Of a DNA stretch of 64,000 nucleotides, positions 19,298 through 55,132 are shown one piece after another (within the stretch, counting starts at the first letter, position 1; every line of letters starts with the position of its first letter). Origin of the DNA: Tubulanus polymorphus (Eukaryota; Animalia; Nemertea); the NCBI RefSeq assembly GCF_964204645.1, contig NC_134026.1:15906150-15970149 (forward strand), written 5' to 3'. The notes beneath the pieces are model-generated. The model saw only the letters and a program-made list of their open reading frames with translations. It was not told the DNA's origin and did no database searches. The position numbers and the translations under genes are program-made.

Positions 19298-19309
19298 TTA
19301 TAATTTATT

Positions 19310-20010: not shown

Positions 20011-20044
20011 ATCTTGATAATTATTATTATACGCCTAAATATGC

Positions 20045-20390
20045 TCTCTATTATTTTCTCGCCATTGTTTATTCATTTTTTTTACATTTTTCCAGATTAT
20101 CCGTCGATATTGTATATTCATTTATTTATATATCTGTATATTTTTACATTTATTTATTATTTTCACGATATTGTTTAATATTATCTTTACATTATCTGGA
20201 TTATCTCTATAATATTGTTTACTATTTTGATTTTGACAGCTTTTGCAATTATTTCGTAAAAGATTTTAGCTAATCTTACGTTTATGAAATTCTGCTAATG
20301 GTCATTATATTTTCAACATGTCTTATGATTTATATTAACAACACCAGTATTATTTGTAATAGTTATAGTTTGTGGTTCTTCTGTCTCCAT
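20045..20390 (-). pseudogene. Zn-finger protein pseudogene (homologue of the 37048 ORF)
   Basis: METEEPQTITITNNTGV... versus MESEQPQTINITNNTGV; FHKRKIS and CKSC motifs retained. Confidence 0.75.
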
Positions 20391-20446
20391 TTATTACACA
20401 CAATTTTTATAATAATTATTGACATGATAAATTTCTATTCATAATG

Positions 20447-21115
20447 TTATTTTCTTTACCTTCCTCCTTTTTAAATTTCAAATATCCGTCTAAATTACAA
20501 CCATATGCGACTGTGTGAATTCCGTTGTTTAAGATTTATCTTTTATCATCGATAGGATTTAAACTCATTTTTTCTATTTCTTCAATAAACATTTCTTGAT
20601 CTTCTGATCTCAGACATTTGATTTTGTTTTTTGCTAACTTCTTCATTAAAAATACAATTTTTATATTCTTTAAAATGAATATTTTTTTCAACAACATGCT
20701 TTGTTATTCCTTTTAATTTTTTTGATCCATGAGTTTTAGTTTTATATGGACACATTTTTGATCTAATTCTTATCATTTCTTTCAAAATCATGTACTAAAT
20801 TATTTGTTTTTATTTTCAAAATATAATAATCAAAGCGTCAAAATGAAGTATTTCTATATTTTTTTCTCCAAAATGTGGTCGTAAAACATAATAATAAAAT
20901 TCATACATTAATAATTTTGATATTTATAAAACTGAAGCTCCACCATGAATTGGTTTATTAAAATTTCATCGATGTTCTTTTCATTTTTACTGCTGCTAAA
21001 TTTTCATCAAATTCATCCTAAAAATATTGGATACGTTTGTGAATGTCTAATTCTTTTTCCATTAGTAACTAATTCAATACCATTTCCATTTCTAATATTT
21101 TCAAATTCACATACA
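20447..21115 (-). pseudogene. pPolB C-terminal fragment (copy B)
   Basis: ENIRNGNGIELVTNGKRIRHSQTYP and IRSKM...KKLKGITKHVVEKNIHFKEYKNCIFNEEV match the C-terminus of 50182-52443. Confidence 0.9.
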
Positions 21116-21809
21116 TTTATTTTCATATTATCCAAATGTACTTTAGATAATTTATGTTTTGAAAAATTACTACGACTTGTATATTTATCACAGACTTCAC
21201 AATATTTATCATTATCATTATCTTTTTCATTAATATCATCATTGATATTATCCAACTTATTGATATCTTCATTATGCTTAGATGAATTGATATAAGTTGC
21301 CCAATTCTTTTACTTTAATATTCTTTACATACGTCACAATATTTTTCATTTGTTTGAATATCAGTTTCAATTTTTGAATTAGATTTTTGAATTAGAAGGT
21401 TTAATATCTATATTTTCATTATAATTAGATGTAGATTCAATATTGTTATCTTCTATTTTACTTATTCTATATTTGAATTGATTATAAAATTCTCCAAAAT
21501 ACTTACTATATTTATAAGGTATTATATAATATATATCCGATATGGTTTCTATTTTATATGTTCCTCTCTACATTTATTATACAATTTTTTCATTAAAAAT
21601 GATTTTATCAATACATAACAATATATATTGTCAATCGCTGTATTTACGAATGTATATACAGTGATTGACAATATATATTGTTATGTATATAGCGTGTATA
21701 TGTATGTACTAATTCTACTAAAACGACTTAAGACACTTAAGACACTAAGACATAGGGGATACGTATTAAATCCATATAAAGATTATTATATTGTTTTAAT
21801 AAATAATAC

Positions 21810-22549
21810 TGTGTAACTGAGAATAAGTTATATTTAATTGAGCATCAGAAATAATATATGCATGCATTTTATAATTATCAATTCCTATTTTTCTTTTTCA
21901 TAAACAATTGTATTCCATCTTTTGTATTTTCTAATCTTTTACCAGAACCATGTCATGAATCATTTTCAGCTGTTCTAAAAGGAATATATTCTATTTCAGG
22001 ATTATAATAACTATAAAAATTTATCGCACCATTCGAATATATTTTAGTAAAAAATATCAATATTACTTTAATTGATCTTCTAGGAAAGTTAATATTTTCA
22101 TTAATTATTTCATCACTTGCACCAATAGTTACAGTTTTAAATTTATCTATATAATCATATAATAATGAAAATCCTTGATTATATTGAGTTTTAATTGTGT
22201 AAGCAATATTTTAATTAGTTACTGTATCATATTCTAAACATATATTTGATGATTTTTAACCCACGTCTCTAATTGCACTCCATAATACTATTTCATTTAC
22301 AGGCGCAAATGTTATTTCAAATATTAAATCTCCTTGAATTGCATATTCATATGATGGAGAATTATTATTAATTAATTCAAAATCTAATGGAATTTTATGT
22401 TTACTACCATAATGTTTTTATTAAATTATCTGCAGCATTATTTACTATTGGATTATTTGCTTTTGATCTAAATTTATCTTAATTTTCTTTTTGAATTCCT
22501 TGAAATATCATATTTTTCCTATTCTCTTTTGTTTACCATAAATATTTGT

Positions 22550-22550
<1 letters not shown>
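21810..22550 (-). pseudogene. Major capsid protein fragments (copy B)
   Basis: Collinear with 43478-44400 (IPLDFELINNNSP, ICLEYDTVT, NINFPRRSIK, ISDAQLNI) with internal deletions. Confidence 0.85.
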
Positions 22551-25790
<3,240 letters not shown>

Positions 25791-32728: not shown

Positions 32729-34300
32729 CTAAACTATATCCATAACCCAGATGTTACTACCCAATATGCCATCAAACTCTACTTTCAGTTCATTATACGT
32801 CTCATACGAATCGGATAGCTCCAGCGTTTTCGTACACGTTCTGCCAAATGGAGCCCTTGTAAGGCCATTTGGCATCTGATTGAATAAAATCTTTATAACA
32901 GGTGTATTGCAGAGGTCGGAGCCAGTACAAAATCGCAAAAATCTCTGCTGCTCTTTCGTGTCAAAAGAGCGGATATAACGTTTTAGATACGTAGCAACGG
33001 AAGACTCCAATGGCGTCATATTTTCTGGGAACGAAAAAGAATTTACAATTTTTTGCTTTCGGTTTTAATTCTTCGTACATTTTAGCGAATTGGTCGCGCG
33101 TTATCCTGAGATTGCCTCGGACTACGACCTTCATACTGTCAACAATAAACATAGTTTGTGGCTGATATCACTGATCAAGGTGTGAAAATTTTCCTTGTTG
33201 GGAATTTTCCTACAATCGTATCCCCCGAGAATTTCTATGACTTCATCGCAATCGTTGTTATCGTCATCGAAATTATCCAAAGCCCTTTTAATAACAACTG
33301 ATTCTGAGGCGGACACATAATTCAGAAATGATTCAATCAACTCAAAAGGGTTTGACACATAATCAAAAAGTATCAATTCAATAAATGGTTTTGCTAAGAA
33401 AATAGGGAAATAGCCATGACATTGCTTATAACCCGCAACAAGTATTCTAGCCACTGATTGCCATTTATCTGAGCCATAATCATGGCGAAGCAAGGGCACC
33501 ATTTCATCATTACCACTCATATTCTTTTTTAACTCCTCCCAGAAATCAGTGAGTGCGTCGGCAAAAACGCCACAACCTTCACCAGCTTCCAAATCCCCAT
33601 TTGGTTACCATACGTACACTTATCATTTTGTTCAATATAGTTTCATCTGTAAATGCGAGTATCATATCATTAATGATATTTGATAACATCTTAACATTTC
33701 AAATCTCAAGACAATTGTTCAAGGTGCTCTCAGAATTTCCTTTTGAAATTTTTTTTTTAAGTGCCGATTCACAGAACAATGGCCACCGATCGGCCATAAA
33801 TATTTTGATTGGCCCAAGTTTCAGCTAGCAGAGAGTTCAAATATAAAAGCATGTTGAAAAATAATTCCACATTTAATTATTCAATAGGGCTATAAAATAA
33901 GTATTTCTCTTACCTCTGTATGCAGATATATTCTGGGCACTTGAGTCACGGTGAGCTGCTCAGATATGTATCCATTAATCGTAAATGCATTTCCTGACGA
34001 CAGATTATCTGTAATCTCTGAACCAGTGAAGGTGGCAACAAAATAATCTAAGTGAAACAGAGATAACCTATGAGCAGCTGAGGTACCGCCAGGAAAAAAC
34101 ACGTCACAGCAAATCCTTATTAGGTCTGCTTTGGAGCATTCTTTATCAACATTCACTGGGTGTGTCCCACCACCTTTGGCTGGCTGAACTTGTTCAAATA
34201 GTTTATTCGAATCATTGTAATGTTTCCACCCTATTTTAAGACGACGAGTTTTCTCAAATGCATTTTTATTATCAGTGCGTACTGATAATTGGGTTGTCAA
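32729..34300 (-). pseudogene. G2E3-like HECT E3-ligase-domain gene, frameshifted
   Basis: EAGEGCGVFADALTDFWEEL...YFPIFLAKPF (33131-33592) and FLRFCTGSD...RAPFGRTCTKTLELSDSYETYNELKVEFDGIL (32729-33019; HECT C-lobe with catalytic Cys). Upstream exon RRLKIGWKH...GGGT...FFPGG (33914-34280). Confidence 0.75.
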
Positions 34301-36320: not shown

Positions 36321-36437
36321 CTCAAAATTAATCAATAATTTTCTAACAATTGACATGAGAGACGATTTTGTAATTGTATGTTTGATCATGTATATATAAT
36401 ACTCCTTTGTTTATCTATTTCTAGAATCGTAGACCTC

Positions 36438-37025
36438 AGTAATAGGGGTAATGGGCTTTCAGGCCAAAGGTCGAAGGGTCGAGCTCATTAAAAAACAAAA
36501 CATTAAAAGTAATTTAAAACTATAATATATTTTCATAACCGTGTGTATTTTATATTATAACTAAATATTTATTATAAGATATCAATAATTTAAAAAGCAT
36601 ATTGTATTAAATCAATTGGTCGCTCCACTTCGCTACCGCTCCGCTCCGCGACCAATTGATTTATTTACAATACACAAATTCATATAATCAAATATATTTT
36701 AATAATAATAATTATTCTATTATTCAACTGAAATACACACGGTTATGAAAATATATTATAGTTTGAAATTACTTTTAATATTTGTTTTTAATGAACTCGA
36801 CCATTCAACCTTTAACCTGAAAGCCCATTACCCCTAATACTCTTAAAATAATCATATACATGAATAACATTTAAATTGACAGATTATTCAATATAAAAGT
36901 ATATATTTACAACATTATTTCAATATTCATATTTGTGTGAGTTAGATTTTTAAACATTAAAAGTGTTAGTAAAGTGTGATTGAAATAATGCATGATATAA
37001 ATCATTGAACTTCTAAAATCAATTT
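36438..37025 (+). repeat. Left TIR (588 bp; outer 404 bp self-complementary)
   Basis: Reverse complement of 54191-54778 with about a dozen substitutions by manual comparison. Confidence 0.97.
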
Positions 37026-37047
37026 CGTAAAAAAATATGTATAATAA

Positions 37048-37718
37048 ATGGAATCAGAACAACCACAAACTATAAATATTACAAATAACACTGGCGTCAA
37101 AAATATATACTACAAGATGTGTTCTAAATGTGAATTAGATAAATTAGCTATAACAGAATTCAATAAGCGTAAGATTAGCAAAGTTGGCTTTCAATATTGC
37201 TGTAAAACTTGCGCTAAACTATATACCAAACAATATCGAGAAGATAATATAGAACATTATAATTATTATATGGCAGAATATATATGAGAGAAAGATATAA
37301 AACAGATCTTAATTTTAGATTGAAACAATGTTTAAGATCTAGATTAACACAATTATTCAAGAAAGAAACGCATTCAGAAACACTATCTAATTTATTGGGT
37401 TGTTCAGATGAATTCTTAAAATCATGGATTATATTTCAATTCGATGATAAAATGAATATAGATAATTATGGTGAATACTTTCATATTGATCACGTGTTGC
37501 CGATTTCTAAATTTGACATGAGTGATGATTATAATAAGAAGCTAATATGGAATTGGAAGAATCTAAGACCTTTAGAAAGGAAGGAAAACATAATTAAATC
37601 CAATAAACTAGATTTACAGTTATATTTAGATCAACTGGATAAAGCAAAGACATTTGTTGAATTATGGAATAGTATTCCACAGAATCAACCGCATTCTGAG
37701 GTTTTGATCAGTGGTTAG
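37048..37718 (+). pseudogene. Zn-finger plus HNH-type endonuclease, split by a 2-bp slippage
   Basis: CSKC...CKTC in 37048-37287; HIDHVLPIS...NWKNLRPL...ENIIKSNK in 37284-37718. Removing one AT from GAATATATATGAGA fuses the two frames. Confidence 0.8.
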
Positions 37719-38064
37719 AAAGCTGGCAATTCTATTTGAGCTTTGTATGTATATAATACATAGCTTTTGCTTACTACTAAAACATATGTTGCCAAATATA
37801 TCTTGTTTTCAATTCTAAAGAATTAATTAACTTCATCATAAAGAACATCTGTGCAGAAGTAATTAGTTTGGTCGAACGTGTGCCACGTCGGCAGTAAGAA
37901 ATCAACATTCACATATACAGAACGCATAGGATATTCTCTCTCGTAACACAGTTTACAGTTCTAAATCTAAATGTAAGTACCGTTTTTTGTAGTTATTATG
38001 AAGTAGGGAAACCTTTAAACATATTTAAGTACAGTAATTCATTTTCACGACATCTTTTAGATTA

Positions 38065-38792
38065 AAATGGAATACAGAGACAACCAGAAATTCCAAGCCA
38101 ACCAACGGATGAGGAACGATTGCTGCTGGATAGTGAAACACAGGAATCAATAGAAATTGAGGATAAAACTCTCGTAATTGACGAACAAACTTCACAAAAA
38201 TTACAAGAACATTTGGACTATCATCAAGAAATGGTGAAAATTCTGAGGGATGTAATACATAATAAACAATTACCGCGCGAACTACAATTACCAAAATTAC
38301 CAGCAACGCGACTTAAATTGCTGTTGGGACTCAAAGAATCGAAACTAAGAAAATGAGTGGAGAAGAGTTGAACGAGTTTTTAAAATCTAAATTAATCATT
38401 GACACAGATCATTTAAACTTTCCGGAAATACAAAGTGTAGAAGTTATTTCATTTGCTGAAATTACTGATGTCTTAAAAAAAGTTATAAAACCATATTAAA
38501 TAGAAAAGCAAATCACCTATGGGACCACATCATTTTCGGGGGTTATCTAAATATAGGGTTTTCAATGTTTGATAAAGAAACTGAGGGGATTTCTTGGGGG
38601 CTGTGGGTTAAAAAGAACATAGATATCAGTGCCGGTTTTGAAAGAAAACTGAGAAGAGTAGGTAGATTAATAAAATATGAAAAATTCAAAATATTAGGAT
38701 TAGCATTTAGTGAAGTTGTAAGATATTTACCCGAAATTGAAGAAATGATTGGAAACAATCCAGTAATTAAAGAATTCTGGACAAAATTATAA
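38065..38792 (+). pseudogene. Two degraded hypothetical Polinton ORFs
   Basis: Open segments 38120-38356 and 38565-38792 with stops in between; no recognisable motif. Confidence 0.4.
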
Positions 38793-38866
38793 ATTATAAC
38801 ACTGATTGTAATATAGATATCAAAAAAAGTTGTATATATCTGTTTTAATATTGTATTGTTTACTGT

Positions 38867-39090
38867 TAACTGTGTATTGCGCAATAACCGGTCCGATTGG
38901 ACCGCATCTATTGTTCTCCATTGTTCTATTATTGATCGTTGTTGACTGAAACAGCTGCTCAATATTGATTGGTTACAGTTCTATGTTTGAATGTTGTAGT
39001 TTACAGAATAAAAATATAACTGTGTATTGCGCAATAACCGGTCCGATTGGACCGCATTTCTATTGTTCTCCATTGTTCTATTATCGATCG
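38867..39090. repeat. Two ~72-bp direct repeats containing palindromes
   Basis: 38867-38938 and 39017-39090: TAACTGTGTATTGCGCAATAACCGGTCCGATTGGACCGCAT...GATCG. Confidence 0.92.
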
Positions 39091-39498
39091 CTAAAATTTG
39101 TATAATAAATATATGTGTTTATGAAATAGTAATTCCACCAGTCGTTTCTTTGAATTTATTTTCAGTTTGAGGATTTATTATCGAGGATCCGAAATGACTC
39201 ATCTGGACAGTTATAGTTACTGCTCCTATAGATAAACAATAGTAGTGAGATATTAAATCCTAATTTAAATAAAATATAATAAAAAAACAATAACTTCAAC
39301 TAGCTAGTGAATTCTATTATATTTTTAATATTTTCTTTTTAAAAAGAGAATACTTTATATTTTGAATAGATTCAAATAGAAATTCTTTAAATTCAAATAG
39401 CTAGTATCAGCAGTCAATACTAGAATTCTTTAGCTTTAACAAGCTAGTATCATTTGAAGAATACTTATAATATTTTTTGCTTTTTTTCTCTAATATAA

Positions 39499-40099
39499 AT
39501 GTCAAAGAAATCTAATAAGAATAGTATTAATATTGAAAAAACATTAGATGATTTGGGTATAAGTGATAATAAAGATACAGTTGTAACTAATTGTGCTCAA
39601 GTTAATTGTAATATAGATTATGAATACTATTTATATTGTAAGCATCATCTTGAATTATTAATTGCTGGCGGGAAATCCAAGGATTTCTTGGGAAAAATAA
39701 TTACTTTTCAAGAATTAGACTATGAAACCAGATAAAGTAATAAAATATTTTAAGATTTATGAAGAAGCAAGATTAGCCCGAATAAATGATTCTATTTCAG
39801 ATGGTATTGTCAAATGTTATTCTAAGTTATGTAACCAGTTAATACCAATTGATGATGAAAATAAATTATATAGTGATTTGAAAAATGACTATTTAGTTAT
39901 GACTGAATTACAAAAATGGGTTGGTTATGCTTCATTTCAATTAGGATCGGTTATGACATTAATTTCTACTGGTGTCATAACATTTTCGAACATCAAGCCT
40001 ATGGAATATAAATCAGGTAAGAACGAAACATATGTACTACAACCAAACGTCGAAACAGAAAATGAATCAGAACAAAAATTAACTAAAATAAATGAGTGA
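39499..40099 (+). pseudogene. Hypothetical Polinton protein, frameshifted
   Basis: Overlapping ORFs 39499-39735 and 39722-40099, consistent with one gene broken by a frameshift; TAAATG start. Confidence 0.65.
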
Positions 40100-40451
40100 T
40101 AGCGTTAAGAAGAAGCCTAGATCCGAGAAACAAATTATATGGGCAAGAGAATTAGGTAAAAGATCTTCAGAATTAAAAAAAGCTAAGAAAAAGAAATTAA
40201 CTGATATAAATGAATCACCTGATATTGATTCAAATAATAATCCATCTAATTCTTCTAATGCTGGAAGTAATTATAAATTATATATTACAATTGGGTTAAT
40301 CACAATTATTATATTATCCGGTGTAATATATAAATCAAAATTCAAATCTGATGATAAAGATGATTCCAATGATAATAAACCTATCATACCAGAAAATAAG
40401 TCAAATCATAAAGTCATTGAAACTAAATCTAAATTATTATTAATGGATTAA
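40092..40451 (+). CDS. Small basic membrane protein (119 aa)
   Basis: Lys-rich N-terminus, one hydrophobic segment LYITIGLITIIILSGVIY; TAAATG start; abuts the integrase. Confidence 0.75.
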   Translation: MSDSVKKKPRSEKQIIWARELGKRSSELKKAKKKKLTDINESPDIDSNNNPSNSSNAGSNYKLYITIGLITIIILSGVIYKSKFKSDDKDDSNDNKPIIPENKSNHKVIETKSKLLLMD

Positions 40452-40457
40452 AATAAG

Positions 40458-41570
40458 ATGAAAAAAGAACAATATTTAAGAGATTTATATGAAAACCCAG
40501 AAAGTGAAGTATCATATTCTAACGTTTCAGAATTATGGAATAAAATTAAATCTGATAATGAAAATGGCGCCGTACGGCACCCACATGGTGATATAAAATA
40601 TAGTGAATTAAAATCATGGTTACAAAATCAACCAACATATCAAATCCACAAGAAAATGGATAAAACTTATTTAACAAGAAAAGTTATGGTTTCATATATC
40701 GATCAACAATGGCAAGCAGATTTAATTGACATGAAGAACTTAGAAGAATACAACAAAGGATATTTCTGGATACTGAATGTTATAGACATATTCAGTAGAT
40801 ACGCATGGTCAATTCCAATCAAAAATAAAACTGGAATAGAAGTAACAAATGCTTTTAAATCTATATTTAAAGAAGCTATTCCAGATAAGATACAATTTGA
40901 TGAAGGTAAGGAATTCTATAACAAACATTTCAAAAAACTATTATCTGATAACGATGTAGATTATTTTTCAACACATTCAGATAAAAAAGCATCTATTATA
41001 GAAAGATTTAATAAAACATTGCAAACTAGAATGTGGAAATATTTTACTGCTAATGAAACATATAAATATATCGATGTGTTAGATGATTTAGTGAAAGGTT
41101 ATAATAATTCTAAACATAGTTCTATAAATATGAAACCTATACAAGCTAGACAAGAAGATAATTCAGAAATAGTTTGGAATAATTTATATGGAGCGTTTGT
41201 TACACATGATTTCGGTGAACCTAGATTCAAAATTGGACAACACGTAAGAATATCTAAATATAGAAAAACATTTTATAAAGGTTATACCCCAAATTTTACT
41301 GAAGAAATATTCAAGATTAAAAAGATAATATTAACTAAACCTTTTGTTTATGAAATTAGAAGATCTAAAAGATGAAGAAATATTAGGTTATTTCTAGGAA
41401 GAAGAATTATCACTTGTACCAAATCCAGATGAAATAGAATACAAAAAATAGAAAAAGTATTGAAAACAAAAACTCTTAAAGGAAAAAAGTATTCTTTGGT
41501 GAAATATAAAGGTTATGATAATAAATTTAATGAATAGATTTTATCTAGTAAAATTAAAAGAATAAATGAA
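40458..41570 (+). pseudogene. Retroviral-type (rve) DDE integrase with C-terminal chromodomain-like tail broken by frameshifts and stops
   Basis: WQADLIDM, IQFDEGKEF, IIERFNKTL in ORF 40458-41375. Downstream frames read LEDLKDEEILGYF*EEEL...IEKVLKTKTLKGKKYSLVKYKGYDNKFNE*I. Confidence 0.95.
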
Positions 41571-42177
41571 TAAAGATTCATTTATATTTGAACCGCATAA
41601 TATGTTAGTTACTGGTGTAACCAATTGTGGTAAAACACATTTCATATTAGATTTGTTAGAAACTATTTATAAGAATCATTTTGATAATATAATATTATTT
41701 TGTCCTACTTATGAAATGAATAAAACATATAATAGAGATATAGTTAAGATAAAAAAGTTTATTATATTAAATCCTAAAACAGTAAAAGAAAATTTAGATA
41801 ATTGTATAAAAATAGCAATTGATACTTATAAAGGATCAAATACATTATTCATTATAGATGATTGCGCAAATTTACACCATTCAAAAGTTAGAGAAAGTGA
41901 GTTATGTTATTTAGCTTTTTCTGGTAGACATTTTGGGATAACAACGTGGGTTTTAATTCAAAAATATAATTCAATTGTTAAAGATTTTAGAGAAAACATT
42001 TGATTTTTAGTATTATTCTACAATAAAGATAGGAAATCAATGCATCAATCATTGGAAGAAAATCAAATTATACCTACTGAATTACATGATGAATATATGA
42101 ATAAATTAAAGAATAATAAAGGTTCAAAATTATTACTGAGACTTCAATTTCCCTATGAATATAAATTTATAAAATAA
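41566..42177 (+). pseudogene. A32/FtsK-HerA-type DNA packaging ATPase with one in-frame stop
   Basis: Walker A GVTNCGKT, Walker B FIIDD, SGRH. The TGA at 42001 is Arg in copy B and the frame continues to TAA at 42177. Confidence 0.93.
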
Positions 42178-42194
42178 CTATTTATATATCTATC

Positions 42195-42535
42195 TATCTA
42201 ATACGTATTTAATGCGTATTAAATACGTATTAAATACATTAATACTTAAAACCCCCCTTTTTTAAAATAAATATTATTCATACAATTTTCAACCAATTTA
42301 TTTTTATTTTTTTCAACTAATATATGAATAAGTTTGAAAATAATAAAGCTTATTTATTATTACTGGGGTTTCAATATAAATTTTAAAAAGAAATATAATT
42401 TAAGGTATTTTCAAATAATATGTATTAGATACGTATTAGATATGTATTAGATACGTATTAGATACGTATTAGATACGTATTAGATATGTGTTAGATACCT
42501 TAATACTTAAAACCCCCTTTTTTATTTACTATTAT
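42195..42535. repeat. Repeat-rich spacer between the convergent gene blocks
   Basis: (AATACGTATT)-like and (GATACGTATTA)n tandem repeats, each followed by TAATACTTAAAACCCCCCTTTTTT. Confidence 0.8.
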
Positions 42536-42557
42536 TTTATACAATTTTCAACCTTTA

Positions 42558-43445
42558 TTACTTTTTGAGTGTTAGATAATTACTTTCTGAATCACTTTCA
42601 TCATCACTCTCAAATTCATCATCATACCCCATCAATTTATTCAAATGCTCTACCGTATCTTCATAAATAATTGGTTTATTGATATACTTATTAGTCATCT
42701 CATTTATATCTTTATTTTCTGATTTAGGTTTCATAGAATCTTTATTATCAATGCGCTTTCCTGTAACTATATCACCATGTGGGTGCCGTATGGCACCATT
42801 TTCATTATCATCTTTCTTAGTGTTAGACCTTACTATTGTATTTACAATGCTTGATTGTAGTATTTTTTTAGCAGCAGATAAATCTAATTCATCATTACTA
42901 GGTTCCTTAGATAAAAATTCACCTAATAAATCTTTATATAAATCTTTACCATCTACTTTTTTATTTGAAACAAACTTTGTAACATAATTAAATGGGTGTT
43001 CTATAAATTCTTTTTAATCAACACGTTCTATAACATTAATAATATGTGAATTTGTATTCATATGATTATTCCAATTTGATGGAGCGTTTGAAAATTCACC
43101 TTTACAATAATCACAATAATTTCTATTTTCACTAACATTTAATATTATTGCATTATTATATGTAGAAGGTATTACATTATTAGATGTAGTAGGTATTACG
43201 TTATTAGATGAAGTAGGTATTACATTATTAGATGTAGTAGGTATTACATTATTATCAATTACATTACTTAAATTATCAACAACACCACTTTTATTATTAT
43301 TGATTTCTATTAGTTTAGTTTTATAAATTTTGAAAATAGGATCAAATATCAAAGCTATATTACAAGGTATTACATAATTTAAACCATCATTATTTTCATG
43401 TGTATCGATGTATGGAATATGTTTATATACTTTACCTCCTTCCAT
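42558..43445 (-). pseudogene. Hypothetical protein with C2H2-like finger and NNVIPTTS repeats; one in-frame stop
   Basis: ORF 43014-43445 (CDYC...HMNTNSH) continues in frame past the TAA to 42558 with an acidic C-terminus. Confidence 0.75.
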
Positions 43446-43477
43446 TTATTATATATATTTTTATTAAAGTTAAAATT

Positions 43478-44712
43478 TTAATACATAACACTATCTAATG
43501 GTGAATTTACAATATTTAATTGCGCGTCAGATATAATATAAATGTGCATTTTGAAATTTTTGATTCCTTTATTCTTTGTCATGAATAATTGTATTCCATC
43601 TTTAGTGTTTTGTAATTTTTTTCCAGAACCATGTAATGAATTATCCTCTGTTGTTCTAAAATCTAACCATAATGCATATTTATTACCAGTATAATAATCA
43701 ATTTGATTAATATTACAATTTTCAGATGATTTTACTTTTTCATTCATAAAATGTTTTCTAATTTCTGACCATTGATCAATCATTCTCATTTTATTTGCTA
43801 TAGTTATTCGATAGTTATTTCTACTTTTGTTATTTCAGGATTATAATACTTATCAACCTGTATTGCACCATTAGAATATGTTGCAATGGTAAAAAATATT
43901 AATATACCTTTAATAGATCTTCTTGGGAAGTTAATATTCTCATTAATAATTTCATCATTTGCATTAATAGTTATAGTTTTAAATTTATCAATATAATCAT
44001 ATAATAATGAAAATCCTTGATTGTGTTGAGTTTGAATTATACTTGAAATATTTTCATCAGTTACTGTATCATATTCTAAACATATATTCGATAATTTATA
44101 ACTCATATCTATAACAACGCTGGATAATACAATTTCATTTACAGGAGCAAATGTTATTTCGAATATAACGTCTTCTTGAATTGCATATTTATATAAAGGT
44201 GCATTATTATTTATCAATTCAAAGTCTAATGGAATTTTATATTTGCTTCCATAAATCTTTTTTATCAAATTATCTACAGCATTAGTTACTACTGCATTAT
44301 TGGCTTCAGATCTTAATTTATTTTGGTTTTCTGATTGGATTCCTTGAAATATCATATTATTTCTATTTTCTTTAGTTAACCATAAATCTTTATAATGCAT
44401 AAATAAATTATAATCATCTAATGAGAAAACTGTTTCTGGACCAATCTTTATTGTTAACTTTTTAATCAAATATCTTCCAACATTATCAACAACATAATTA
44501 TTATTATTACCTATTACTTTTATATCGGCAGATAAATAAATACTATTTGGAACATAAAAAGTATTTTGTGTTAATCTAGGAATTCTAACATATAAAGTTT
44601 CATCGGGATTAATATTAGAAGGGTTATGAGTAATTATATGATGTGATCTTTCTACTTTAATAGCATTAGATATTCTAGAAATCTTAGAAGGACTTATATA
44701 ACTCCCACTCAT
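43478..44712 (-). pseudogene. Major capsid protein (putative double jelly-roll), broken near 43800
   Basis: ITHNPSNI...LYVRIPRL...NVGRYLIKK...YKDLW...IPLDF...ICLEYDTV...PRRSIKGIL, then KYALWLDFRTTEDNSLHGSG...DAQLNI. Size ~410 aa and position fit a Polinton MCP. Confidence 0.8.
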
Positions 44713-44732
44713 TTATTTAACAAAAAAATTAA

Positions 44733-46163
44733 TTATTTATTTTTGATCATGTTTACTAAACCAAAAATAATAGCACTTACAACTGTAATTGAAAATAAAA
44801 TAATATGTTCAGCAGCAAAGTTAATAATGTTTCCTGCAGATTTCAATATAAAACCAACAATTGATGCAATAATTCCTGGCAATGCTGCAGCAGATTTTTT
44901 AGATAGTTCCCATAAATATTTTGCTAATTTCTTTAAACCATCTTTAACTTTATCTTGTATAGAATTATTATCTGGAGGTTTATCCGGTTTATTGGGAGTA
45001 GGAGTAGGAGTAGATTTCAAAGCATTTGATATTGCTAAACCAATTGTTGTAAATACCATAGTTACAGCTGTTAGAATTGAAAGAATTGTTATTCCTTCAA
45101 ACTTAAATAATAATTTTATTCTATCTTTTAGTGATATGTCAGAATTTGGTTTTAGTATTAACTCTTTAACAACAACTTTTAATCTATTAATATTATAATC
45201 ATATGATTTTAACAATAATTTAATTTCTTCTTTCTGTACTTCTAAATTATCATTTAAATTATTAATTTCTTTTTCTAATCGTAATTCTTTTTGCCTATAT
45301 TCTATTTTATCAATTGCTTGATGGCCTAAATCAGACATTAATTTTTCTATTTCTTTATTTTTATCAGTTAATTCTTTTTCTAAATTGTTAATTTTAATAT
45401 CTCTTATACTTTTATCATGTGCAATTTTATCAGTTTCATTTCTTATACTAATAATTTCTCTAATTGCTTTATCAGAAAATATATTTAAATCTTCTAATTG
45501 TTGATCTGTTGCATCAAGTAATCCCTTAGGTAAAAGTTTTTCAGTTTGAACACTTCTTGATTTAGGTTTACTAGTTTTGGAATTAATAACTTCTTTAGTA
45601 ATTGTTTCTGGTTCTAAATTGTCATAAATTATCTTCAAAAAATAATCATTTCTTTGTTTAAATACTCTTCTATTATCAATTATCTCTTTTTCTGTAACAT
45701 CAGTTATAACATCATTAATGATTTTCTTAATTGTATCTGGTTTTAATAAATTAAAAGTTGATTGTGCTATTATTTTATCGTTACATTTAAGATTTGAAAT
45801 CTTAAAATAATAGTCATCTTTCAAATTCCAATAATAATCACCATTTGAATATTTTAAATCTTCTACTAAATAATCCATACCTTTATTTGTTATATTGAAA
45901 CCAGATCTTTTTAATATTGGTATAAAATTACTCGTGATTTTATCATATTTAAATTCTTTTTCTGTTAATTCTGGTACTTCATTTTCAATACTTATCTTTG
46001 AACGTGTTTTATCAATAAATTCAGGTGTAGTTAAATTAGTATAATATGCCGTTTTATTATCATTACTGAAACTTGTTTCATCAAAATTAGGTGGTTGTTC
46101 ATCACTTATACCGGGAGCGTCACCAAAAGTATCAATTCCAATATCTTCTCCGCCTTCTGCCAT
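44733..46163 (-). CDS. 476-aa coiled-coil protein with C-terminal hydrophobic/amphipathic helices
   Basis: Intact ORF; long heptad region followed by GITILSILTAVTMVFTTIGLAI, ALPGIIASIVGFIL and IILFSITVVSAIIFGLV. Confidence 0.9.
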   Translation of the reverse strand: MAEGGEDIGIDTFGDAPGISDEQPPNFDETSFSNDNKTAYYTNLTTPEFIDKTRSKISIENEVPELTEKEFKYDKITSNFIPILKRSGFNITNKGMDYLVEDLKYSNGDYYWNLKDDYYFKISNLKCNDKIIAQSTFNLLKPDTIKKIINDVITDVTEKEIIDNRRVFKQRNDYFLKIIYDNLEPETITKEVINSKTSKPKSRSVQTEKLLPKGLLDATDQQLEDLNIFSDKAIREIISIRNETDKIAHDKSIRDIKINNLEKELTDKNKEIEKLMSDLGHQAIDKIEYRQKELRLEKEINNLNDNLEVQKEEIKLLLKSYDYNINRLKVVVKELILKPNSDISLKDRIKLLFKFEGITILSILTAVTMVFTTIGLAISNALKSTPTPTPNKPDKPPDNNSIQDKVKDGLKKLAKYLWELSKKSAAALPGIIASIVGFILKSAGNIINFAAEHIILFSITVVSAIIFGLVNMIKNK

Positions 46164-46179
46164 TTACATAATAAAAAAA

Positions 46180-47505
46180 TTAAAATTTGAAATATAATAT
46201 TCCTCCGATTACAATTCCTATACAAGTTAAAGCTAATTTAGCATTTTCATGGGATTTATTATCATCATTAGTTTTAATTATATCATGTTGAATATTATCG
46301 GTTCTAATATTTTCTGATGTATTGTAATCTTTTATTTTAGAATCATTATTTAATTTAATATTATTAGTTTTAGTTTCAGTTGATTGAATGTGTTTTTTAT
46401 TTTTTTCACCTTCCATTAATTTTGGAGCAGTGATAATCTTTTTATTTATATCATTCAATCCAAATGAATTATTTATTGTTGCAGTTTTAATTAGATTATT
46501 GTAACCAATTATGTTTCCCATCTTTAATACTAAATCATTAGAAATAATAAATAGATTAGGGCCTATACAATAATTTAATCTAATATGTGATTTATCTAAA
46601 TAATTTTGATATCTTACAATGTTTTCCGGAATCGATCTATTTTTATCATTATGAATTGAATCTTCAAATAATACTTTGAATTGTTTCTGCGCATCGAATG
46701 AAGTGTTATCATTTCCAATTATTGGGGATCTTGTTTCAACTTGCGCTCCTAAAATACATATTAAATAAGTTCTAATAGATTGATTTATTCTTTGTATTCC
46801 AGCTTTAGTAAAACCTTCACTATTTTCTAAAATGAAATTAACCCAACCATTATTGTTTTGTTGTTGTATATTATTATAATATTTTGGTAATTCATTCCAA
46901 TTTAGTGTTCTAATATCTGAATTTGTCATTATTTTTCCAAATTCTTTAGTATATAATATTCCTAATCCACCCATTGTTCCAATTTTTGCTCTAAAATCTT
47001 TATTTGAATTAATATTAAATTCATTACATATTTTATAAAACTTAGAAAAATTAATATTATTATTCAATTCTTTAAAATATTTTGAACCTGGTAAAGGACA
47101 TTCTAATTCATCTAATATTAATTTTATTTGAAAATAAGTATGAAATCTAAAAAGTGATAACATCAATGGTAAACTTGGTTTGTTTAAATGATCATTCCAA
47201 CTAATTCCACATCCTGTTGTTGCGCAATAAACAGCAAAATTTAATTGGTTCTGCCAATACTTCATATTAGATTTTAATAACCATTGTTTTGCCTCATTTA
47301 AATTTTTGAAATTAATTGTATACACATGAAATATATTTTCCATCTTTACATGAAAATTATTACTTTCAGTAACATAAATATATAAATCAATTAATGAATT
47401 TAAAACTTCATTTCTATATGTAATATCTTTATTAAAATCTATTGCTGGAATATTATATTTAATTGATTTATTATATTGGAAAGCTTTTGGAAAACTATCT
47501 GCCAT
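46180..47505 (-). CDS. 441-aa conserved Polinton protein with C-terminal TM anchor
   Basis: Intact ORF; WQNQLNFAVYCATTGCGIS; homologue in copy B; ends ALTCIGIVIGGILYFKF. Confidence 0.9.
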   Translation of the reverse strand: MADSFPKAFQYNKSIKYNIPAIDFNKDITYRNEVLNSLIDLYIYVTESNNFHVKMENIFHVYTINFKNLNEAKQWLLKSNMKYWQNQLNFAVYCATTGCGISWNDHLNKPSLPLMLSLFRFHTYFQIKLILDELECPLPGSKYFKELNNNINFSKFYKICNEFNINSNKDFRAKIGTMGGLGILYTKEFGKIMTNSDIRTLNWNELPKYYNNIQQQNNNGWVNFILENSEGFTKAGIQRINQSIRTYLICILGAQVETRSPIIGNDNTSFDAQKQFKVLFEDSIHNDKNRSIPENIVRYQNYLDKSHIRLNYCIGPNLFIISNDLVLKMGNIIGYNNLIKTATINNSFGLNDINKKIITAPKLMEGEKNKKHIQSTETKTNNIKLNNDSKIKDYNTSENIRTDNIQHDIIKTNDDNKSHENAKLALTCIGIVIGGILYFKF

Positions 47506-47521
47506 TTATATAATTAAAAAA

Positions 47522-47956
47522 TTAATAATTTATTAATTCTTTTAACAATTTATCTTGTTCTTCAACTGTTATATGACCATTTAAACTTATTATATAATCT
47601 AGTGTATTCTTTAATTTATTAATTTCTTTGATATTAGTTTTAATTCTTTCTTTATTACTTTTTATATTTAATTTTGAACTTATACCAGTTAAAACACTTG
47701 AACCTAATCCTAATACACCAATTGATATAGCTAAAGGTGTTAATGGACTGAATATTGCTAGAAATGTTATTACAGAACTAATTGTAACCGAACCACTGAT
47801 AATAAGATAATATATAATTTTACTTTTTAAATATTTTTTCTTTTTTATCTTTAAGTCACTTTCAAATTCTAATATTTGTTTTTCTAAATATGTTTTTAAT
47901 TTAGTTTTATTTATATCATGAGGAATAATATCAATATTATCAACTTTATCATCCAT
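47522..47956 (-). CDS. 144-aa two-TM membrane protein
   Basis: Hydrophobic hairpin flanked by Lys-rich helices; homologue at ~23880-24170. Confidence 0.85.
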   Translation of the reverse strand: MDDKVDNIDIIPHDINKTKLKTYLEKQILEFESDLKIKKKKYLKSKIIYYLIISGSVTISSVITFLAIFSPLTPLAISIGVLGLGSSVLTGISSKLNIKSNKERIKTNIKEINKLKNTLDYIISLNGHITVEEQDKLLKELINY

Positions 47957-47976
47957 TTATTAAGCAAAAAAAATTA

Positions 47977-48396
47977 CTAATTAGTAAACTTATACGCTAC
48001 AAATATAACAATAACTGTTCCACCTAAAATCCAAATTATTTCATATTTCAGTTGTTCATTACTTGGGGTATAATAATCTGATAATTTAGGTTTGTATAGA
48101 TGTAATTTTTCTTTGGTTACTGCGTTATATAAACTCATTGCATCATCAACTGATTGAAAATCTCTATGTGAAATCTTCTGATCATATAATTCCATGTTAA
48201 TATAATCCATATAGTTTTGCCTCTTTTCTCTATATTCTTCTGCTGCTTAATAGTATTTCTCTAATGCTAAGTTATGTCTTTTTTGTTCTGTTAATGATCC
48301 ATTTGTATCAATATGTTTAAATAAATAACCACCACCAGTAAATGCTAAAGCGTTAACAATTGCCGATCCTATAATAGTTATAACTGCAGAAGCCAT
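47977..48396 (-). pseudogene. ~139-aa protein with N- and C-terminal hydrophobic segments; one in-frame stop
   Basis: MASAVITIIGSAIVNALAFTGGGYLF...EQKRHNLALEKYY*AAEEY joins in frame to ORF 47977-48210. Confidence 0.8.
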
Positions 48397-48420
48397 TTAT
48401 TTAGTAAGATAATTATGTAT

Positions 48421-48642
48421 TTATATGGGAGGAATATATTTTTGCTTTTCTAAATAATCAATAGTTAAATTAGATAAAGTAACTGCTAATGTTAATTTTA
48501 AAATATCATTTATATCAAATCTATCAACATTAACACTTCCCATTTTGAATACTTTTTTTAATACCATTGAATAACCAACGGTTCCAACTGATAGTAATGC
48601 TCCATTATATAATCCAGTTATTATCCACTTATTATCACTCAT
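48421..48642 (-). CDS. 73-aa small hydrophobic protein
   Basis: Intact; homologue at 23392-23600; TAAATG start. Confidence 0.8.
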   Translation of the reverse strand: MSDNKWIITGLYNGALLSVGTVGYSMVLKKVFKMGSVNVDRFDINDILKLTLAVTLSNLTIDYLEKQKYIPPI

Positions 48643-48985
48643 TTATTTATCAAAAAAATTACTATCATCAAAATATTTAGTTATCTTATTTATGATTAAT
48701 TCAACATTTATTTCATTACTACTTTTATGATTATCATATATTTTGGTTAATATGTTTTTAATATCATCAATAATTCCATCTTCATTTAATTCATAATATT
48801 CTAAATGGTGATTTAATTAAATCAATTACTTTTTCTATATTATAATTTTCTTTATTAATCATTGATGCATTGCTAAATGATTTACTTTTTATATCAGTAA
48901 TTACATCATTTAGTTTAATTCTCATTTCTTTACCATGTTTAAAATCAAACCCAAAACATATACTCGGTCCAACAGTTATATTCAT
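48639..48985 (-). pseudogene. ~115-aa hypothetical protein, frameshifted
   Basis: MNITVGPSICFGFDFK; the copy B homologue 23053-23391 is still open full length. Confidence 0.75.
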
Positions 48986-49761
48986 TTATATAGTGAAAAA
49001 AACTCTCTACATCTTATAACTAATTCATAAATTACAGGGAAATTATTTAAATCAATTAAGTATCCATTGTGATTTCTAATTTCTAATCTAAAATTATAAA
49101 AACGAGGAATGCATGGTTTGAAATCGCATTCTGTTAAATTATGATTTATTTGCGTTCCAAATTCTTTAACATTCTTCAATGGTAAAATGTTTAGTAAACC
49201 AGAATTACAAGTTATATCTTTAGTTGCTTCGAATGTTTTTGTAGGATCGATTAAATTGCAATAAATATAGAAATGTGTGTAAGGTATTAAGTTTGGTGTA
49301 GTAGCGTCAATATTTGTAAAAGATCTATCTGGAAGAATTCCTAACAGTTTAGCTATAGGTTTTTTTACCATAAATTTATGTTTTTCACTATTAGACAACC
49401 TTATCTTTATTCTATCAGAACTCTCACTTTTTAAAAATCTAATAGTAAACCCAGAACTACTACCTAATTTGTGCCAGGCTTTTCTATTAATTTCTTGTGC
49501 TAATGTATCTAAATTATATAACCCCGGTTTAAAAAAAATAGAGGACCATTCATTTTTACCTTTATCAAAAATTAAAAAGGCTCTATGTTCAATAGTTTTA
49601 TTCGTTATATTATAAAAAGAATTACATAAACTTATATTAACTAATTTTAAATCTACATAATTCTTGAATTCTCTATCTAATTGTACTAGTAAATTATGTG
49701 ATTTATAATCTGTAAGCCTTCTAGAATCAACAAATATTCTGTATTCTTTTAATTCCACCAT
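48982..49761 (-). CDS. Putative minor capsid (penton) protein
   Basis: PGLYNLDTL, FYIYCNLID, LLNILPL and C-terminal LEIRNHNGYLIDLNNFPVIYELVIR are typical of Polinton minor capsid proteins. Confidence 0.75.
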   Translation of the reverse strand: MVELKEYRIFVDSRRLTDYKSHNLLVQLDREFKNYVDLKLVNISLCNSFYNITNKTIEHRAFLIFDKGKNEWSSIFFKPGLYNLDTLAQEINRKAWHKLGSSSGFTIRFLKSESSDRIKIRLSNSEKHKFMVKKPIAKLLGILPDRSFTNIDATTPNLIPYTHFYIYCNLIDPTKTFEATKDITCNSGLLNILPLKNVKEFGTQINHNLTECDFKPCIPRFYNFRLEIRNHNGYLIDLNNFPVIYELVIRCREFFSLYK

Positions 49762-49778
49762 TTATTTTACATATTTTC

Positions 49779-50132
49779 TTATTCGAAATCTATTTCATGG
49801 TGCCCTTTTTCATTCTTACCTTTGTATACGAAATAGAAATCTCCAGAACATAATTCTTCTAAATCTTCACTTGATAATCTATGAAATCTATCTGGTAAAT
49901 ATGTTCTGAATTTATGTGTATTTCCTTTTAATCCTTCATATTCTTAGTGTATAACTTATTTATCTCCATAGTTATTAGTAACTGTATCAATATTTGTAAT
50001 TAGATATTTCTTATGGATTGTTAATTCGGTTAACTTTTTGAATTTATAATCTACAGATTTTACATTTGTGATATCTTTTATTTTATCTAGAAATAATTTG
50101 TTGTTCTCACTGTGTGTTTGTTCACTCTCCAT
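49779..50132 (-). pseudogene. ~117-aa hypothetical protein with two in-frame stops
   Basis: MESEQTHSENN...FKKLTEL...KYLITNI...YGDK*VIH*...FRTYLPDRF...FYFVYKG; not in the ORF track because of the stops. Confidence 0.65.
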
Positions 50133-50181
50133 TTTAATAACATATTTTTATCAAAATTTGATTAACAAGTTAGAATTCTTT

Positions 50182-53100
50182 TCATTCTCTCGTTCTCTTT
50201 TGTTCTTCTCTTTTGAATTTTAAGTATTCATCTAAATTGCAACCATAAGCAACTGTATGAATTCCATCATCTAAAATAAATCTTTTATCATCAAATGGGT
50301 TTAGACTTATCTTTTCAATTTCTTCAATAAACATTTCATGATCTTCAGATCTTAAACATCTCATCTTATGTTTTCTAACTTCTTCATTGAATATACAATT
50401 GATGTAATCTTTGAAATGAATATTCTTTTCTACTACACTTTTGGTTATTCCTTTTAACTTTTTAGCTTCATGTTCTATAGTTTTATATGAATACATTTTA
50501 GATCTAATACCAATGAATTCAATCATTTCTTCACCGCCTAATTCATCTTTGAATTTACCGGGAACTTTTTTATTATCATTGCTAAACAATTCATGATCTT
50601 TAGGATAGTTACTAAAATCAAAATGATGTTTTAATGTTTTTAAATCATCAGTTATGTTATCAGTTTTTATCTTTAATATGTAACTGTCGGTATGTTTTTC
50701 TCCAAAAACTGGTTGTAATACATTATAATAGAATTCATACATTAGTAATTTTGATAATTCTAAAACTGAAGCGCCAACATAGATTGGTTTATTAAATTTC
50801 ATTGATGTTCTTCTCATTTTAACTGCAGCTAAATTTTCATCAAATATTCTGTTACCAATGAACTTAGGATATGTTTGTAAATGTCTAATTTTTTTACCAT
50901 TACTAACTAACTCAATATCATTTCTATTTCTAATATTTTCACAAGTCTTACCATAGAATGCATTATTCATTAACTTGAAGAAATCTTTCTCGAAATCAGT
51001 TTTAGCTTCAGTTCTCTGTTTGGTGTTAAAATCTATATATTTTTCTAACCACTTAGATTGACTGAATGAAATATATCTGTGTACTTTTTTTAGAACCATT
51101 CCTTGTTTTAGATAAAACTTTAACATTCTATAATGTACTACATAATTATATTTATCTTCTTGAGTTACCATTAACTTTTCTGTATGAATATGATTTTCAG
51201 GTTTAATTCTTTTTTGGCAATTTGATAATTCTTCATGAGTTACGGTTTTATGTTCGGGGCAGTATGCTAGATTTCTAGATTTGAATTTAATATGTTCAGG
51301 ATATTCTAAATCTACAACAAAGAAGTAACCAGTATTTGAATCATCTGCAATATCTAGGATTCTTTTCTTCCAATCAAATTTATCATTATTTTCATTCTGT
51401 AAAACTTCAGTTAATTCAAATACTCCATAAGGTTGTGGTTCCATCATTGCCCAACCATATAAATTATTTGCATCTATATATAATAACTTATATCCAGCGT
51501 TATCATTTACATTGAAATATCTATCCCCTAATACACCTGAAACTCCTCCTCTTATAGATTTTTCAAATAATAATAATTGATCTATATTTGTTAACAAATC
51601 CATTTTTATATCTGTAAATTTTAATCCACAATCCCATGTTAAACCTGGACTAGAATAACAATGACATGGATCAATATTAAAATATTTTAGGTTTACATCT
51701 CTAAATCTTTCGAATATATCGGTTAATGATAATACATCTGATTTTAAATATACATCTACTAATTGCCCATGATTTTTCATTCTAAAATGATTCCAAATAT
51801 TCAATGTTCTATTATAGACTTCATCTTTAACATATTCATTTTTTAATTCATCATAGAATTGTTCTTTCAACAATTCAGATATATTATTATGTGATTTATA
51901 AAATGAATATGGAATTGCGCCTTTATATCTCATTAATTGAAAATCATCATTATTTGGGTAATGTTGCTTTAATGTTTTTAATTCTTCATCAACTAATGAT
52001 TTTGATAAGTTATCTAATGAACTATTTAAGAATCTATATGAATCTATAAATCTTAGGCAACCAAATTGGAATGATATATAATTCTCAGATGTTTTAGCTA
52101 ACATTCTAAATTTATAAGTTGGTATTTTATCTTTTGATCTATTTGAATTTAATATTTCTATTTCATTATTGATTTCTTCTATTTTATGGCATAACTGTTT
52201 GATGAATAAATGTGCATCATATCCTGATAGATTATGAAATATAACTGGTACAAAGTTAATTTTCTTAGCTTGTAAGTTACAATTCTCATGTGCAGCGCCT
52301 CTAAACTTTCCATTCAAATGATCATGGTCTCTTACTTTTTTATCTTTAAAATTAAATATCTTTTCACAATAATAACATTTATCTGAAAACACAAATTCTT
52401 CTTTATCTTCTTCTGTCATAATTATTTCTTTATTTGTATTCAATAATTTACTAAATCTTATTTCATATCCAATTAATAAGTCTCAAAAATGATTGATAAC
52501 ATTTTCATTTCTATTATGATAATATTCACTTTTAATTAGTTCTGGATAATCAGATTTAATATATAACCAGAAAGCTGCAGCTGATTGATGAATCTTTTTA
52601 ATAGTATTTGTTTTTGGTGGTTCATCTGAAAAATCATTTTCATTAGAATTTAATTTCTTTCTTTTATAATATATTTCTTTTCTATCTTGATCAGTTAATT
52701 CTTTATTTAATGATTCAAAATCTCCATATATTACAAATGGTACTTTATTTTTGTAGTCATATTTTTTGAATTCTAATATCTTATCTTTTTCATTTGGTAA
52801 AACTAATTTACAATAATCATGATTTTCACATAATTGTTTATGATTTAATAATATACTTTCATTAGTGAATCTATGTAAACATTTTCTACAAAATATATTT
52901 TATGGTGATCACTTTCTGATTTAAAAAATAAATCGATTTGTTTAATCCACATATAATGATTCTCATAATATAGTATATCTATAACATCATTTGAATCATA
53001 ATCTTTTGATAGGTATAAAGGTTCTAATGTATAATGTTTTATGTTGTTACCTTTAGTATTTGGTAATTTGATTGAATCAATTTATCTTTATAGTATTATC

Positions 53101-54168: not shown

Positions 54169-54190
54169 TTTAATACTAAATTTTTTATAA

Positions 54191-54778: not shown

Positions 54779-55132
54779 GACCTCCATAAACTAGCTAAAA
54801 TAGAAACAGTGATACAACGTTTCAAACTACTGACAATAAACTACCTAAACTCAAATCGAAATAACCCGATATTAAGGAACATCTTTTACGATATTTCGAG
54901 TCCGTGGCCGTCTTCTGATATCGTAGAGGCGTATAAGAACATTCTATAGCGCAAACACTACTACCGACTTTTACCCACGCAGTCGGAGAATCGAATGAAC
55001 GATTCCTTTGTTGCGCGTACACACTACCCATGAGACGAGAAGATACACAATATCCGTGTAAGAAGATAACAAGAGAAATCCCACAATAAGTTCAGCCAAA
55101 ACGAGAAACTTGAATAGAAGAGTTATATATAT

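Follow-up and report, generated by a model that had tools for sequence, protein, structure and literature searches.

A long imperfect fold-back in the terminal inverted repeats of an animal Polinton with predicted protein-priming domains

The closest described systems are the Polintons, or Mavericks, whose terminal inverted repeats (TIRs), 6-bp target duplication, rve integrase, packaging ATPase, capsid protein and protein-primed family B polymerase (pPolB) with a PRD1-type terminal protein, vOTU and inserted nuclease domain are all shared by the element reported here, judging from the accessible text of two accounts (10.1101/2024.03.18.585575; 10.1101/2023.08.22.554363). As the accessible text of the former describes it, the terminal protein of Polinton polymerases is of PRD1 type, the loop that leads into its last strand holds the linking Ser or Tyr, its fold is close to the little finger of Y-family polymerases, and a vOTU protease follows; the role of the vOTU-like protease is likewise taken from this source (10.1101/2024.03.18.585575). 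A fold-back inside the TIR is not described in the accessible parts of either account (10.1101/2024.03.18.585575; 10.1101/2023.08.22.554363), and a nematode Polinton paper gave 0 matches for hairpin or palindrom. In our literature search on Polinton end hairpins, the one directly comparable case was a Halocafeteria preprint of July 2026; an earlier remark in subscription papers is possible. According to its accessible text, endogenous virophages and subtype 4 PLVs in Halocafeteria seosinensis carry a palindrome in the TIR that adjoins the target duplication, and a hairpin-priming model is proposed for these elements, which share an rve integrase and a TIR palindrome with ours (10.64898/2026.07.28.741278). 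Their palindromes, however, are 52 nt long (subtype 5), occur preferentially with non-pPolB replication genes and belong to a protist, whereas those described below are 257-404 bp long, imperfect and located on animal-type elements with a pPolB and a terminal protein; neither orientation nor covariation of the palindromes is reported in the accessible text (10.64898/2026.07.28.741278).

Three further systems invite comparison, each drawn here from accessible portions of the sources. Streptomyces telomeres (Tpg/Tap) similarly combine a 5' terminal protein with a 3' strand that folds back, and truncated ends are repaired by extension on the fold-back, but they differ in their internal origin, end patching, several short palindromes and unrelated proteins (PMC5449611; PMC4513846). 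As a working analogy only, they show that a terminal protein and a self-repairing 3' fold-back can work together; no Pfam match to Tpg or Tap was found among the ORF pieces of our locus. Poxvirus and parvovirus ends share an incompletely paired AT-rich terminal hairpin and an encoded resolvase-like nuclease, yet they exist as two isomers (vaccinia ends occur as flip and flop; PMC8956199) and have no polymerase-fused 5' priming protein, whereas here one orientation accounts for at least about 93%. Casposons, too, are self-synthesising pPolB elements, some with internal palindromes in their TIRs, but they are prokaryotic and use a Cas1 integrase, and the accessible text assigns no role to the palindromes (PMC4046053). 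An entomopoxvirus PLV paper mentions hairpins for poxvirus telomeres only.

The window analyzed here, a 64,000-nucleotide stretch of the genome of the nemertean Tubulanus polymorphus, contains at 36438-54778 a Polinton of 18,341 bp in which several genes are broken. Its 588-bp TIRs and 6-bp target duplication fall within the Polinton/Maverick ranges of the nematode Polinton paper (100-1500 bp and 5-8 bp, respectively). The terminal features are as follows.

36432-36437, plus strand: left copy of the target-site duplication GACCTC, 6 bp
54779-54784, plus strand: right copy of the target-site duplication GACCTC, 6 bp
36438-37025, plus strand: left TIR, 588 bp, 13 mismatches to the right TIR, outer end marked by read ends
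54191-54778, minus strand: right TIR
36438-36841, no strand assigned: left fold-back unit, 404 bp, from folding and motif comparison
54375-54778, no strand assigned: right fold-back unit, facing its own terminus in the same way as the left unit
36438-36623, plus strand: outer arm, comprising the AGTAAT end motif, a GC-rich block, an AT-rich stem and the closing stem
36610-36623: closing stem of the outer arm, 14 bp
36624-36647, plus strand: loop, 24 nt, C-rich, containing CCACTTCG
36648-36841, minus strand: inner arm, terminating in an inverted copy of the terminal motif
36842-37025, plus strand: inner, non-palindromic part of the TIR; read depth continues across 36841 (1469 to 1371)

Compared with the Polintons of the two accounts above, this element differs in that 404 of the 588 TIR bases form one hairpin carrying a second, inverted end motif, beyond which the TIR extends for about 184 bp, to 37025. 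A sequence-only reading had described the outer 404 bp of each TIR as an imperfect palindrome, and both its coordinates and its structure proved correct. The terminal motif, said to occur four times, is exact over 26 nt at three places (36438 and 54375 on the plus strand, 54778 on the minus strand), while the copy at 36841 on the minus strand has 1 mismatch. Folding of both strands of 36438-36841 as DNA gave -116.8 kcal/mol for the plus strand and -122.5 kcal/mol for the minus strand (z = -21.1 and -23.6), with 0 of 100 shuffles equally stable. In the predicted structure the 3' end is paired and flush, as in the foldable, imperfect terminal palindromes of rolling-hairpin or poxvirus-type telomeres. 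Pairing is good in two segments only, an outer one of ~112 nt (101 of 114 columns) and the 14 bp that close the loop; the AT-rich ~60 nt separating them pair poorly. The GC-rich block of the outer arm holds a GGTCGA-type repeat at +31 and +39. As had been noted, the left and right units (394 of 404 bases identical) carry the same arm-to-arm differences, and the imperfect hairpin therefore predates this insertion; the two units are also 76% alike as direct repeats. Searches of Rfam returned no family over the 404-bp unit at E up to 1, with one weak match in the flank, and no match in three relatives (L003-L005) considered below.

A decayed second Polinton of a related subfamily, rearranged and 73-85% identical, occupies 18424-25638 and has no TIR match; it is interrupted at 24692-24839 by a 148-bp perfect palindrome, which was set aside as a TA run. 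Elsewhere in the window, 144-bp arms that are 99% complementary and lie 575 bases apart (912-1774) probably mark a small DNA transposon, and the host-side ORFs at 32729-33520 and 58156-61885 we take, by eye, to be a HECT-type ligase fragment and vWA-domain exons.

The gene content of the Polinton is as follows.

37048-37718, plus strand: gene with a Zn-ribbon and an HNH-like part, frameshift near 37280, weak zf-C2H2_3 match
40458-41375, plus strand: retroviral-like integrase (Pfam rve, E=1.5e-9)
41566-42177, plus strand: packaging ATPase (A32-type) with a stop inside (Pfam Pox_A32, E=3.5e-12)
43478-44712, minus strand: probable major capsid protein in two pieces (weak Pfam Capsid_N match, E=0.0055, below cut-off)
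50182-54168, minus strand: pPolB in four ORF pieces, assigned from the ORFs and relatives
52270-52416, minus strand: EndoVII-like (HNH-type) domain within pPolB (Pfam Endonuclease_7, E=4.8e-5, at cut-off)
52956-53250, minus strand: vOTU-like protease with Cys (53248-53250) and, one ORF piece further on, His (52956-52958)
53401-53763, minus strand: predicted PRD1-type terminal-protein domain (model pLDDT 80-95), Ser at 53446-53448

The element thus has the Polinton/Maverick set of an rve integrase, a pPolB with N-terminal terminal-protein and vOTU domains (the gene being broken here), and a packaging ATPase with a capsid protein whose Capsid_N match lies below the cut-off. The HNH part of the 37048-37718 gene has no Pfam match and is presumably an HNH motif, as judged by eye. 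No Pfam match to a Ulp1-like maturation protease was found among 24 ORF pieces, nor to a HUH Rep or RuvC-like protein among the same pieces, in which the EndoVII-like domain is present. Two side observations concern this region: the ATPase gene and the minus-strand gene block converge on a 335-bp AT-rich imperfect palindrome with tandem repeats (42175-42509, z -6.7), and a shared word of ~30 bases, probably a promoter or start motif, precedes several minus-strand genes (46156, 47498, 48636, 44706).

The domains expected for protein priming appear to be retained. Intact pPolB relatives (P0001-P0003) are 64-69% identical to the window over the N-terminal part, and a model of the window's N-terminal ORF, built from a 21-sequence alignment (single-sequence input gave pLDDT 35), adopts a PRD1-type terminal-protein topology with the GSG loop in place; the predicted linking serine (53446-53448) sits in this loop between helix 2 and the last strand. 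Structurally, the model is closest to little-finger domains of Y-family polymerases (Z 8.2-8.6; rmsd 2.7-3.4 across 94-104 residues; Foldseek E 0.004-0.04), and these matches cover residues 8-151 only, with no fold match for the vOTU half. The GSG-loop serine is present in 20 of the 21 aligned sequences. From the 27 loci considered, the alignment left out L008 for an ambiguous base, L018, L021, L024, L031 and L032 as short, and L028 as a near-copy; L033, which is long enough and lacks a GSG-type loop, was left out as well. Both the Cys and the His of the vOTU domain are present in the window and in all three intact relatives, Cys conservation in A2 being circular, as the A2 loci were found with that motif. 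With the terminal-protein domain, its serine and the vOTU residues all kept, protein priming is predicted to be kept too. Because the terminal-protein domain is common to the whole polymerase group, it does not exclude additional self-priming. The EndoVII-like domain had been proposed, beside the HNH domain, as a possible resolver of the hairpin, a role for which it provides no specific evidence because it is a general part of this polymerase group, found also where no end hairpin is seen.

To place the hairpin in the context of the family, we used reads from one raw genomic run (12% of the run) of the same species, produced in a study other than that of the contig runs. Depth was ~2-6 on unique flank versus 1830 on the family-specific outer arm, a ratio that corresponds to ~300-760 family ends per single-copy equivalent, that is, several hundred. 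Across the outer end, depth rises from ~2-4 to ~3000, and 2290 reads at 36436-36438 continue into unrelated DNA (agreement 0.34), which marks this position as the genuine end of an element inserted at many sites. Both arms and the loop are covered at a depth of 1150-1800, and the drop across 36841 amounts to only 98 of 1469 (6.7%); no fewer than 93% of inner arms lead on into the element, and no loose ends at 36841 appear among the 6 best of 165 entries (smallest 294 reads). The hairpin is thus seen throughout the family, at several hundred ends and nearly always in one orientation. An assembly artefact was rejected, as raw reads of the other study span the whole unit without a gap.

The same counts bear on two ideas of the sequence-only reading, flip and flop isomers and a common stand-alone mini-element, neither of which was upheld. 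Both whole-unit flips and stand-alone units place the inner arm beside host DNA, so together they make up at most ~7% of inner arms. Flip and flop are therefore not both common: whole-unit inversion accounts for at most ~7% of inner arms and partial switches for ~3% of the reads able to show such joints, the latter on a rough denominator. These partial switches are opposite-strand joints at mirror positions in three places (30 + 16 + 11 = 57 reads), which may be partial inversions, converted arms of a subfamily or library template switches; the X1-X3 contigs do not contain the first such joint. On the inner arm, none of the letters that the GC-rich block has in the outer arm was seen among the best-supported 40 of 101 variant rows, which come from unphased 150-base reads. 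Likewise, with at most ~7% of inner arms stopping at 36841, the 404-bp unit does not occur as a MITE-like element in many copies with host DNA and a target duplication on both sides, a bound that leaves room for few or shorter units. The loop was lost in 43 reads, through three deletions.

Several side observations emerged from the reads. A TIR variant that is common among them lacks 126 bases of the inner non-palindromic part (36871-36998; 260 reads) and retains the hairpin. Depth is nearly doubled over the first 57 bases (36438-36494), and joints connect this segment with the inner motif over a spacer of 32-34 other letters (10 reads) or a longer one (42 reads); the same end motif is present, with shorter hairpins, in other subfamilies or small units of this host. 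By eye, the short 32-34-letter spacer resembles an AT stem that carries a C-rich loop. The 294 loose ends at 36457 were considered as the inner motif of another subfamily, a reading that was dropped: the agreement would be equal for an outer end whose first 19 bases differ and whose flanks are mixed.

Relatives were sought with the polymerase N-terminus in metagenomes, which returned at least 31 loci, and with the polymerase in viral sequences, which returned 3 more, distant ones; viral scans with the N-terminal alignment and with the integrase found no relative, and the terminal motif had 0 exact matches in viral contigs. Four loci are close relatives (L004-L007, pPolB 67% identical), and a fold-back is present in both of those with enough upstream DNA (L004 and L005). 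In L005 it is a 257-bp unit bounded by AGT and ACT (z -13.7) that follows GC-richer, host-like DNA, the other end of the element lying beyond the contig; the L004 contig starts inside the hairpin, whose inner arm finishes in the inverted motif. Neither fold-back has blastn similarity to the window TIR. All three nevertheless carry a GGTYGA-type repeat at about +31 and +39 and follow a common layout of end motif, tandem GGTYGA-type block, AT stem and GC-rich tip. Stem length differs among families, at 404, 257, about 175 and about 120 bases. The 8-base word CCACTTCG is common to the window loop and the hairpin tip of L005. The fold-back is family-wide, and its layout is conserved in at least three families. 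In the other 30 loci, which are more distant and whose ends were not located, the search found no fold-back bounded by AGT, a result that is uninformative; the palindromes of L012-L014 and L026 were rejected as terminal hairpins (GC-rich or tandem repeats), as were those in L016 (an inverted duplicate of coding DNA) and L025 (without end motif). A small gene at 49956-50147, downstream of pPolB in the window, sits in L004 and L005 on the stretch that separates the hairpin from pPolB; its beginning is similar to that of the window's left terminal ORF. In L003, a 184-bp imperfect palindrome (4657-4840, z -19) lies between the pPolB gene and a Zn-ribbon ORF that resembles the window's left terminal gene; its AGTAGT points away from the loop, and its centre is made of two direct copies of a double mini-hairpin. 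It looks like the end-to-end junction of a circular or concatemeric Polinton.

The two arms of the hairpin change together. At 5 of the 9 variable paired inner-arm sites, the complementary variant was found at the mirror site of the outer arm, in which 8 of 101 paired sites are variable (hypergeometric P=8e-5 for the coincidence, on the best 40 of 101 rows). Allele shares agree at two of these pairs (32/34% and 26/21%) and differ at three (49/21, 34/21 and 57/25%), in part a consequence of the extra depth that other subfamilies contribute over the first 57 bases. This pattern does not separate selection from arm-to-arm copying. The differences between the arms also have a direction: in the GC-rich part, 4 of 5 are C/T, as first reported, and become G-T pairs on the 3'-terminal strand. 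Shared transitions in the outer stem give G-T on that strand in 5 of 5 cases in the window and 3 of 3 in L005 (two-sided P=0.008), as do 16 of 19 transitions over the whole arms (P=0.004), where the alignment is shakier; one private difference of the right unit goes in the opposite direction. Base content does not favour this bias because the outer arms hold more G than C (22 to 14 and 17 to 7). We infer that wobble is tolerated on the folding strand or that this strand is exposed to deamination, and either would point to a 3'-end strand that is single and folded. In folding energy the 3'-end strand gains little over its complement (5.7, 3.1 and 0.1 kcal/mol). The earlier proposal that the 3' end folds back and primes synthesis thus divides in two. 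The 3' end probably does fold back, since the hairpin is family-wide, the arms covary and the G-T bias recurs in a relative of unalike sequence; the rolling-hairpin scheme with flip and flop is not supported.

Taking these observations together, we tentatively favour the explanation that the 404-base fold-back on the 3'-end strand re-forms and repairs the duplex end, while the polymerase still starts from the terminal protein. Once excision or strand displacement had left a strand single, the 404 bases at its 3' end would snap back at once, and in cis this would require no waiting for the other end 17 kb away. The resulting local panhandle, for which the adenovirus panhandle offers a comparison, would display the end motif and the GGTCGA-type repeats as duplex and would conceal the 3' end. 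The fold-back could also serve as the template for extending a shortened end, with the inner arm supplying lost terminal bases. Priming by the terminal protein at the 3' tip would copy outer arm, loop and inner arm in the old order, and hence no flip would arise; occasional arm-to-arm copying would produce mirrored variants and a few arm switches. The poorly paired middle of the stem and the 43 loop-less reads count against this explanation. A need for self-priming to replace protein priming is not supported, as the terminal-protein domain, serine and vOTU residues are kept.

An unlikely alternative is that the structure is a by-product with no needed job: the terminus would have been duplicated by fold-back copying in the past, and copying from arm to arm would hold the two arms similar. 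Copying alone fits the mirrored variants and arm switches, stem length and sequence vary among families, copies without the loop exist, and the accessible text of the Halocafeteria preprint offers accidental annealing as an alternative (10.64898/2026.07.28.741278). It is less easily reconciled with the same layout in three families whose TIRs are otherwise unalike, with a loop word common to two of them, or with a G-T bias on one strand.

We consider it improbable that the folded 3' end primes the first copy of the excised strand, with the terminal protein priming from the open end, and that a cut on only one side of the dimer junction lets a single orientation survive. The left end of minute virus of mice is a precedent for one-sided resolution, although our literature search gave no paper for this parvovirus precedent. 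The flush, paired 3' end left by the fold-back, the G-T bias on the 3'-end strand, the fixed differences between outer and inner arm in the GC-rich block and the nuclease domain inside pPolB would all suit such a scheme. It requires, however, an asymmetric cut and repair of the shorter product, and no joint of inner TIR to outer arm is found among the best 15 of 27 joints (smallest 5 reads), bearing in mind that such reads might align unsplit and that genomic DNA need not hold replicating forms.

More doubtful still is a signal for excision or circularization, whether as a nuclease-cut cruciform or through recombination of the two units into a circle. The similarity of the two units in direct orientation (76%), the loop deletions expected of an unstable palindrome and the junction-like single 184-bp palindrome of L003, located between both kinds of terminal gene, are consistent with it. 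A cruciform nevertheless uses both strands and predicts no G-T bias on one of them, solo units left behind amount to at most ~7%, and L003 is distant (35%) with its motif opposite in direction.

Classical rolling-hairpin or poxvirus-type ends, resolved symmetrically to flip and flop, are very improbable. Parvovirus hairpin ends, which take flip and flop forms, belong to a system with no 5' priming protein fused to the polymerase; here the terminal protein is retained. The imperfect terminal palindrome and the 57 reads that switch arms at mirror positions are what such ends would show, but those reads may be library template switches, and the X1-X3 contigs do not show them. Flips are at most ~7% where flip and flop should both be common, and the inner arm shows no outer-arm GC-block letters in the best 40 of 101 rows. 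Since symmetric hairpin transfer or cruciform resolution gives both isomers, the orientation counts exclude it as the routine path. An equally slim chance attaches to the 404-bp unit being a mini-element of its own, sitting on or giving rise to the Polinton ends: its inverted integrase-type ends, together with the extra depth on the first 57 bases and the short-spacer joints as signs of other units with these ends, speak for it, yet the inner junction has no target duplication, the TIR follows directly on at least 93% of inner arms, and in relatives the corresponding position is taken by unalike units of their own.

Self-priming has already been proposed in print for virophages and PLVs, and its simple form fails here. 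New, as far as searched, are the fixed orientation, the covariation and the strand bias on elements that keep a terminal protein. These observations matter because Polinton chromosome exit and copying rest on a model. The accessible text of the 2026 preprint leaves palindrome priming undecided and ties palindromes mainly to elements without pPolB (10.64898/2026.07.28.741278), whereas the long fold-backs described here occur on elements with the whole protein-priming kit. Counts over several hundred ends rule out hairpin replication in its simplest form, and two or three mechanisms remain. There is a small chance that an animal Polinton clade uses both priming modes, folded 3' end and terminal protein, on a single genome, with the pPolB nuclease or the integrase cutting the junction one-sidedly so that a single orientation is inherited; if this were true, these Polintons would have a replication scheme between those of adenoviruses and parvoviruses.
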